Positions 1-1,033 of a stretch of DNA of 1,826 nt are shown here, piece after piece (position 1 is the stretch's first letter; each line of letters opens with the position of its first letter). The stretch is from the NCBI GenBank assembly GCA_000004985.1, contig GG739323.1; one strand, given 5' to 3'. Source of the stretch: Naegleria gruberi (taxonomy: Eukaryota). Below the pieces are notes generated by a model. It saw only the letters and a list, made by a program, of their open reading frames with translations, was not told the origin of the DNA and searched no databases. A program made the position numbers and the translations under genes.

Positions 1-589
1 TAAATCTTGGTGCATGGAATATTTCCTCCAGAAACGATAGCTTGCATTGAAATCAAAGCAAAATCGACAACTGCCTGATCGAATAGAGTTTCAGATGGAT
101 CATTACGAATTCTCATAAATCTCTTGACACCTTTTTGAGGATTTTTAGCTAATTTTTGTAAACGTTCTTCCAATGGAACAATATTAATAACTTTTCCATT
201 TAAAACTTCAGCAATTTCCAAACTTTGAATAAGTAAACGTTCGTATGGAATCATAAATCTATTGAAAGTAAATTTGAATTGGTCAATTACATCCAAATCT
301 CTAATCTTACTCATTTCATTGTAAAGATATGAAAGATCAGAACTTTCAGATAAGAATGACTCGCTCTCCATCACTGCAACATGAACTTTTCTATCTGCGT
401 CTGTACCATTCACTTGAGAATACCACTTTTTCAATCTAGGATCAGCCATCATTCCAATCTTTACAGTCATCAAAGTAATATTCGATACAGTTGGAGAATT
501 TGAAAGGGATTCCATCAGCTCTACATTCGGACGAATATGGCCTGGAAATGGTAATGACAATATCAAAATATTCTTCTCATCACAATAAG
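1..589 (-). CDS. Exon 2, 3'-partial and continuing left of the window, of a secreted or membrane UDP-glycosyltransferase (UGT/GT1 family, N-terminal substrate-binding domain)
   Basis: Minus-strand frame with codons at 5-3, 8-6 and so on is open for the whole span 3..599, with no TTA/CTA/TCA in that plus frame. The translation reads AYCDEKNILILSLPFPGHIRPNVELMESLSNSPTVSNITLMTVKIGMMADPRLKKWYSQVNGTDADRKVHVAVMESESFLSESSDLSYLYNEMSKIRDLDVIDQFKFTFNRFMIPYERLLIQSLEIAEVLNGKVINIVPLEERLQKLAKNPQKGVKRFMRIRNDPSETLFDQAVVDFALISMQAIVSGGNIPCTKI. The segments 'ILILSLPFPGH' and 'FDQAVVD...NIP' resemble conserved UGT N-domain motifs (compare 'ILVYSP..SH' and 'FDVLLAD...NIP'), recalled from memory rather than searched. 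Codon usage (AGA/CGT, GGA, CCA) fits nematode coding sequence. Confidence 0.7.
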
Positions 590-643
590 CTAATTTAATT
601 TAATTAATTTAATTAATTAATATTTAAATAAAATTTATCGTAC
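590..643 (-). other. 54-nt intron, minus strand, GT..AG, consisting of an A/T-rich (TTAAT)n-like tract
   Basis: Minus-strand donor 'caag|gtacgataaatttt' at 644|643 and acceptor 'aaattag|CTTATTGTG' at 590|589. The length of 54 nt is typical of short nematode introns. In the unspliced frame the interval contains a minus-strand in-frame stop (602-600), which is consistent with an intron. Confidence 0.5.
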
Positions 644-740
644 CTTGATGAGAGGAGAATAAAATAGTAGTAACAAGGATGAATAGAATGCAAAATATTA
701 AAGGATTGCTGCTTCGGAAGAGGAAACGATGATTCATCAT
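644..740 (-). CDS. Exon 1 of the same gene: start codon plus N-terminal signal peptide/TM (MMNHRFLFRSSNPLIFCILFILVTTILFSSHQ)
   Basis: ATG at 740-738, with a second at 737-735. It is the first ATG after an in-frame TAA at 773-771. The exon is 97 nt (32 codons plus 1 nt) and ends at a donor AAG|GTACGA. Splicing to 589 restores exactly the frame of the long downstream ORF (G+CT gives Ala). It encodes a hydrophobic stretch typical of a signal peptide, as expected for ER-lumenal UGTs. Confidence 0.55.
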
Positions 741-1002
741 TATCTTTGCTCGAGTTATTGTTGGATTTTTTTACTTATTTCATATGTCTAGTAGGAACGC
801 ACATTTTTTTTTGAGGTTGAAACACTTGCCGTAGTATTACCATTTGTGGCTGTTGTACGCAGTCAATCAAAATATTAGCAACCAAAAGATTTGAATATCG
901 TCTCAATTTGTCGAGACTGAATATAAAGACGTCCTTTGAATTAAGGCAAATGATAATAAGGAAATTGACCTTGCCTACTGAAAGTGTTTTTGAAAAATAC
1001 TG

Positions 1003-1033
1003 TGTAGGGACCATGGTCTAGTGGTAGAAACAC
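1003..1033 (+). pseudogene. tRNA-like 5'-half fragment (D-arm resembling tRNA-Glu: ccATGGTCTAGTGGtAG); not a complete tRNA
   Basis: The 12-15-mer 'atggtctagtggtag' matches the conserved D-stem/loop of eukaryotic tRNA-Glu from memory. No anticodon arm, T-arm (GGTTCGA) or acceptor pairing follows. The sequence runs straight into array A instead. Confidence 0.3.

Follow-up and report, generated by a model that had tools for sequence, protein, structure and literature searches.

The window that we analyzed is an entire Naegleria gruberi scaffold of 1,826 bp, which holds the 5′ part of a gene and the region upstream of it. Our overall explanation, to which we assign a probability of roughly 0.8, is that this gene encodes a membrane-bound GT1 glycosyltransferase and opens with a first exon (exon 1) that is followed by a 54-nt intron. 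The scaffold carries about the first 40% of what is an ordinary enzyme gene from a well-known superfamily and a known genome. What is new is limited to the corrected gene model and to the membership of the product in an undescribed heterolobosean UGT clade; the gene opens no long-standing question, and its value lies mainly in the correction of the model. The features of the window are these:

740..644, minus strand: proposed exon 1, 97 nt, beginning ATGATG and encoding MMNHRFLFRSSNPLIFCILFILVTTILFSSHQ plus the first base of the codon for Ala33
643..590, minus strand: proposed spliceosomal intron, 54 nt, phase 1, with donor AAG/GTACGA and acceptor AAATTAG/C
589..1, minus strand: exon 2, incomplete, 196 codons and 1 nt, stop-free, running off the left edge of the scaffold
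537..575, minus strand: codons K38-H50 (KNILILSLPFPGH), strand beta-1 and the loop that ends in His50
539..537, minus strand: codon for His50, the presumed catalytic base, in PFPGH
63..65, minus strand: codon for Asp208 (...LFDQAVVDFAL...), presumed to pair with the catalytic His
36..515, minus strand: deposited partial CDS XP_002668101.1 / EFC35357.1, "predicted protein, partial", 160 aa

A preliminary description of this DNA had joined a 97-nt exon beginning with ATGATG to a stop-free minus-strand frame of 196 codons by way of a 54-nt GT..AG segment. These coordinates proved exact. The frame occupies 589..1 and runs off the window edge, and exon 1 joins it in phase once 643..590 is removed. 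The start codon of exon 1 is the ATG at 740..738, and a second ATG follows at 737..735. Exon 2, in a frame that is open already from 599, encodes residues 33-228 of the spliced product, which amounts to 228 amino acids without a stop. By an arithmetic estimate, an open run of about 196 codons in DNA of 30% GC has a chance probability of roughly 1e-7. The program-made list of open reading frames is indeed blank at this place, as had been remarked, since the list omits ORFs that run off the source.

The gene had also been called unannotated. This holds for exon 1, the intron and the start of exon 2, which are absent from the database models, but not for 515..36, which the GenBank partial model XP_002668101.1 covers. 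In that model translation begins at the internal Met58 (window 515), and its end, at window 36, lies 11 codons short of the scaffold end. Exon 1, the intron and the opening 25 codons of exon 2 are missing from it. Beyond its last residues (...MQAI) the frame stays open to the scaffold edge and reads VSGGNIPCTKI (window 3-35, minus strand). A second, longer N. gruberi protein reads straight through the same site (VAGGNIPCTKIYAAY...), so that the 3′ end of XP_002668101.1 looks like a modeling artifact. The second protein is the product of the following locus:

NAEGRDRAFT_72667 (P0010), XP_002672196.1 / UniProt D2VUH7: 556 aa, encoded on a 331-kb scaffold

Over the stretch from Met58 to the scaffold end the window product is identical to P0010 at 169 of 171 residues, the two substitutions being N182T and S218A. 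P0010 matches the UDPGT profile PF00201 over residues 380-550 (E 1.6e-13, 50.7 bits against a cut-off of 19.5). Its sugar-donor block has the form FVPQ...THCGANS..E...P...DQ and reads FVPQKALMS..FFTHCGANSVNEALYFGKLLIGFPYAFDQ, and its C-terminus consists of a transmembrane helix followed by a KxKxx-type tail (..CCNRRKVKKE). A C-terminal transmembrane helix with a KKxx or KxKxx tail is likewise found in five relatives (P0002, P0011, P0006, P0012 and P0005). Because this near-identical protein reads on into a PF00201 domain, the concern that a stop codon might appear just to the left of the window is answered.

The wider family was recovered by an exhaustive phmmer search of 1.84 billion representative proteins, which gave nine matches, from N. 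gruberi, N. fowleri, N. lovaniensis and Willaertia magna and from two ENA contigs. A word-indexed protein search found only the deposited fragment and missed P0010; the exhaustive search and a further one seeded with P0002 were needed. Apart from P0010, the relatives are 30-59% identical to the window fragment. Six of the matches are full-length proteins (544-696 aa) that align to the window over their first ~200 residues, and all six (P0002-P0007) score above the PF00201 gathering threshold in their last ~170 residues (24.6-63.4 bits). These PF00201 matches lie within profile positions 320-495 and extend across the membrane-anchor region, to position 484-495 of 499. When the spliced 228-aa translation itself was searched against PF00201, as had been proposed as a check, there was no match, an outcome that had been named in advance as a refutation; only noise was returned (E of at least 0.006, all below the cut-offs). 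The profile is weak in its N-terminal half, and the segments that the relatives match are encoded beyond the window, which accounts for this result. The other Pfam families gave nothing significant with the spliced 228-aa product, and a phmmer search of the window product against PDB sequences gave no match. A profile of the whole family retrieved 107 GT1 sequences from the PDB (best 3e-22), all by way of the C-domain, and a profile of the N-domain alone retrieved one, the plant enzyme LbUGT, with PGH aligned on GIGH at a non-significant E of 0.57. In NCBIfam there was a weak likeness to the macrolide-GT subfamily (46-50 bits against a cut-off of 260). Membership in the MGT subfamily (TIGR01426) was rejected on these scores, which lie far below the cut-offs.

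We modeled the spliced 228-aa product with AlphaFold, using the family alignment, and obtained a confident model (pLDDT 83.5, pTM 0.76). The model has the N-terminal Rossmann-like domain of the GT-B fold, and the best 30 Foldseek matches are all GT1 enzymes, at E-values that are modest (3e-4 to 2e-2). The strand at 38-43 is followed by His50 at the N-terminus of helix 48-62, and Asp208 stands directly after strand 204-207 and before helix 212-220. The catalytic His-Asp pair of GT1 enzymes occupies such strand and loop positions, and in the model a His at the end of the first strand-loop and an Asp after a later N-domain strand are both present and in place. G49 and H50 of PFPGH are invariant in 10 of 10 family N-domains. 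Asp208, in the VVD block, is invariant in one family alignment (A2, where it is numbered D172) and nearly invariant in another (A1). The PFPGH and VVD blocks had been singled out before any of these comparisons, and they do contain the family-conserved His and Asp. By analogy, His50 is the presumed catalytic base and Asp208 its presumed partner; for Asp208 the role is one that we take from general GT1 enzymology. Altogether, the assignment of the window fragment as the N-terminal acceptor domain of a GT1/UDPGT-family glycosyltransferase, which had been proposed from the letters, is supported by the 99% identity to a PF00201 protein, the six PF00201 homologues and the GT1-like predicted fold.

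The product of exon 1 has a basic n-region (R5, R9) and a hydrophobic core of roughly 17 residues. Its Kyte-Doolittle hydropathy, averaged over 19 residues, peaks at 2.13 for residues 13-31, and AlphaFold places a helix at residues 13-30. Judged from this composition, its role would be that of a signal peptide or signal anchor. In all family members that extend to the N-terminus, a hydrophobic segment of signal type precedes the (K/R)NxLIL..PGH block by 6-35 residues, and once 643..590 is removed the proposed signal peptide of the window product lies at a family-typical distance from the motif. The earlier proposal that exon 1 encodes a hydrophobic signal peptide thus finds support in the hydropathy and in the relatives, which carry a contiguous one before the motif. 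The model of an N. gruberi paralogue, P0002 (573 aa), begins MMNNKNILILSHPFPGH, at the catalytic block, and is without a signal peptide; this start differs from that of the window exon 1, which begins MMNH. In P0002 a comparable signal-peptide exon may be missing or mis-modeled.

Upstream of Met58 the window frame, though open and coding for the conserved block, contains no ATG, which makes an upstream exon necessary. Reading through 643..590 is impossible, as the retained segment would bring three in-frame stops. The GT..AG boundaries of this segment restore a continuous, homologous reading frame, and of all GT..AG joins only that at 643..590 retains the hydrophobic N-terminus together with the conserved KNILILSLPFPGH block. 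The GC content of the segment is 7%, and that of the two flanking exons is 33-34%. We subjected the join to a chance test, which counted ATG-started, stop-free, signal-peptide-like N-termini that could be linked to the KNILIL codon without a gap or through a GT..AG segment of at least 30 nt. Among random or shuffled upstream sequences, 1.5-2% allowed such a join; among 346 real non-coding windows of this scaffold, none did. For the sequence as it stands there is a single solution, the ATG at 740 (or 737) with the 54-nt intron. The position of the intron is not conserved: in four of four relatives whose DNA was examined, signal peptide and mature domain are encoded without an intervening intron. 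The genes of N. lovaniensis P0011 and N. fowleri P0012 have a single exon, and in genomic DNA the signal-peptide coding sequence is contiguous in N. fowleri P0006 and Willaertia P0007. An intron need not be conserved to be real. One Willaertia magna gene of the family, ABK040_007585, has an intron of 80 nt (locus L005, 1570-1649; AAG/GTAAGA...GGTAG/T, 28% GC, phase 0). It follows ...TIVLQK, at a position other than that of the intron proposed for N. gruberi, and has a donor like the latter's. A 26-mer spanning the spliced junction had no match in metagenome_contigs. Genes of N. gruberi have on average 1.7 exons (PMC8296547), and RNA-seq of this organism exists as PRJEB23822 (PMC6142364). We consider the splice of 643..590 likely to be real. 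Exon 1 with the 54-nt intron is the best available gene model, since a signal peptide directly upstream of the motif is the family norm.

The main rival to the splice is an AT-rich, frame-breaking insertion. The 54-nt segment would then be microsatellite-like, and the gene would have a decaying 5′ end (a pseudogene or null allele) in this copy or in both N. gruberi copies. The segment is of low complexity and consists of tandem units of the TTAAT/TTAAAT/TTAA type, TTAATTTAA included, as would suit an insertion. Its length is divisible by 3, so that both exons keep the same frame; homologous genes of other species are uninterrupted here, and the scaffold itself is tiny and unplaced. Against an insertion, the segment is bounded exactly by a good donor (AAG/GTACGA) and an AG, and its removal leaves the family-typical distance between signal peptide and motif. 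The 196 codons downstream show no sign of decay: they are uninterrupted, and over 171 residues they depart from the second copy at only two. The chance test puts such a join at only about 1.5-2% in random upstream sequence. We therefore regard the insertion as unlikely. A further rival is that another first exon is used, for example the ORF at 1014..775, whose donor at 917 would be joined to the acceptor at 590 (a 328-nt intron), or an exon beyond the window. Enumeration of GT..AG pairs does yield formally possible, stop-free joins of this kind, but many are expected by chance in AT-rich DNA. Their donor contexts are poor (TCA/GTCTCG, for instance), and the peptide MVPTQYFSKTLSVGKVNFLIIICLNSKDVFIF has a short hydrophobic run that falls short of a signal-peptide-like N-terminus. 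We rejected the ORF 1014..775 as first exon for its poor donors and for a product that is not signal-peptide-like, and this whole class of explanations appears extremely improbable.

The deposited models would be right if the gene had no intron and started at Met58 (window 515), with a product that has neither signal peptide nor PFPGH. Met58 is the first in-frame ATG of the uninterrupted frame, and XP_002668101.1 and XP_002672196.1 both begin MESLSN there, without signal peptide and without the catalytic-His block. Against this start, the 28 open codons upstream encode KNILILSLPFPGHIRPNVEL, where the family is most conserved and G and H are invariant, and according to the AlphaFold model a protein beginning at Met58 would miss strand beta-1 of the Rossmann fold. 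The models of N. fowleri FDP41_013533 and Willaertia magna ABK040_007585 start at the same conserved Met, despite open frames upstream that continue for 59 more codons to an ATG in the former (locus L004, 1324-1500) and for 42 more in the latter (L005, 1375-1500). These upstream frames encode a signal peptide and the RNxLxL..GH catalytic block. The two database proteins are thus N-terminally truncated, and the start at the conserved Met is a recurrent artifact of gene prediction. For the N. gruberi gene we judge the Met58 start very unlikely, and the model with exon 1 and the 54-nt intron is preferred. Its practical value is the correction of two N. gruberi entries and of at least two in relatives; expression, or a prediction of localization, from the database sequences would give an inactive, mislocalized protein.

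Upstream of the gene the window contains clusters of tandem units of 15-16 nt (1027-1125, 1176-1286 and 1720-1792). Their plus-strand consensus is roughly yAAyGrATCCCTTyyk, and there are 14 [AG]ATCCCTT cores, many of which contain a BamHI site (GGATCC). The clusters could be a minisatellite or a dispersed repeat, and they are possibly the reason why the scaffold stayed unplaced. Directly 5′ of the first cluster, GGGACCATGGTCTAGTGGTAGAAACAC (window 1005-1033, plus strand) resembles that half of a tRNA which comprises acceptor and D-arm, and the repeat units (..GAATCCC..) recall a tRNA T-arm. ARAGORN found no tRNA in the window at the default or 80% thresholds; at 60% a tRNA-like call appears among nine other noise calls. 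An Rfam scan of the window gave no match. The element at 1005-1033 may be the relic of a tRNA-derived repeat. Between the gene and the repeat clusters lies an ATG-started ORF of 79 codons (775-1014, minus strand); in DNA so rich in AT it has most likely arisen by chance.

N. gruberi NEG-M is considered a heterozygous diploid (Fritz-Laylin et al. 2010, as cited in PMC9928731). Judged from the two sequences, the window scaffold is probably the unmerged second haplotype of NAEGRDRAFT_72667, that is, its other allele, the alternative being a recent duplicate; the haplotype is the simplest way to read a 1.8-kb scaffold whose protein shares 99% identity with that of a locus on a 331-kb one. The homologues collected here make up a small family of UGTs that are anchored in the membrane and occur only in Heterolobosea, the pathogen N. 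fowleri among them. The acceptor domain of this clade appears to be so divergent that only nine similar proteins were found among 1.84 billion, and a literature search for Naegleria UGTs found no description of a heterolobosean UGT family. A joint reading goes further: a clade of ER-luminal, membrane-anchored UGTs of metazoan style, confined to Heterolobosea, could carry out an undescribed, lineage-specific glycosylation, and the N. gruberi intron may be a new one that arose from an AT-rich microsatellite within the signal-peptide region. We hold this combination to be rather doubtful. If it were true, the clade could glycosylate a lipid, a sterol or a xenobiotic in a lineage-specific manner.

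The mechanism that we propose for the gene and its product is the following. Exon 1 would supply the start codon and the hydrophobic signal peptide, and 643..590 would be removed from the transcript. Exon 2 (589..1 and beyond) would encode the acceptor-binding, N-terminal Rossmann-like half of a GT-B enzyme. The product would be a type I membrane protein made into the ER, where we infer its residence and the cleavage of the signal. Its layout would comprise a signal peptide, a luminal GT-B body, a C-terminal anchor and a tail of the KxKxx ER-retrieval type; the anchor, the tail and the sugar-donor half are taken from the relatives and would be encoded beyond the scaffold. In the active site, His50, held by Asp208, would take the proton from the hydroxyl of the acceptor; once activated in this way, the acceptor would attack C1 of a UDP-sugar that the C-terminal half binds, and the transfer would be inverting.

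Several known systems bear on this proposal. The preliminary description had placed the gene in a nematode. Its source is the heterolobosean amoeba N. gruberi, a host to which neither the context of nematode detoxification clusters nor SL1 trans-splicing is applicable. With the nematode UGT clusters the window gene has in common only the superfamily and the general layout of signal peptide and transmembrane segment, and the N-domain homologues detected here are all heterolobosean. The metazoan ER UGTs (UGT1/UGT2/UGT8 type, PF00201) have the same signal peptide, luminal GT-B body, C-terminal transmembrane segment and lysine-rich tail as the proposed protein, which is expected to work by the same mechanism. 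Plant family-1 UGTs and bacterial macrolide-type GTs (UGT73K1, PcApiGT, CalG4, YjiC/MGT) are the best structural matches of the window fragment, and plant and bacterial GT1 enzymes are also the best PDB and NCBIfam sequence matches of the family C-domain. In the plant family-1 UGTs and bacterial macrolide-type GTs, a Gly-His stands at the same place, at the end of the first strand-loop. These plant and bacterial enzymes are soluble and cytosolic and have neither a signal peptide nor a transmembrane anchor.
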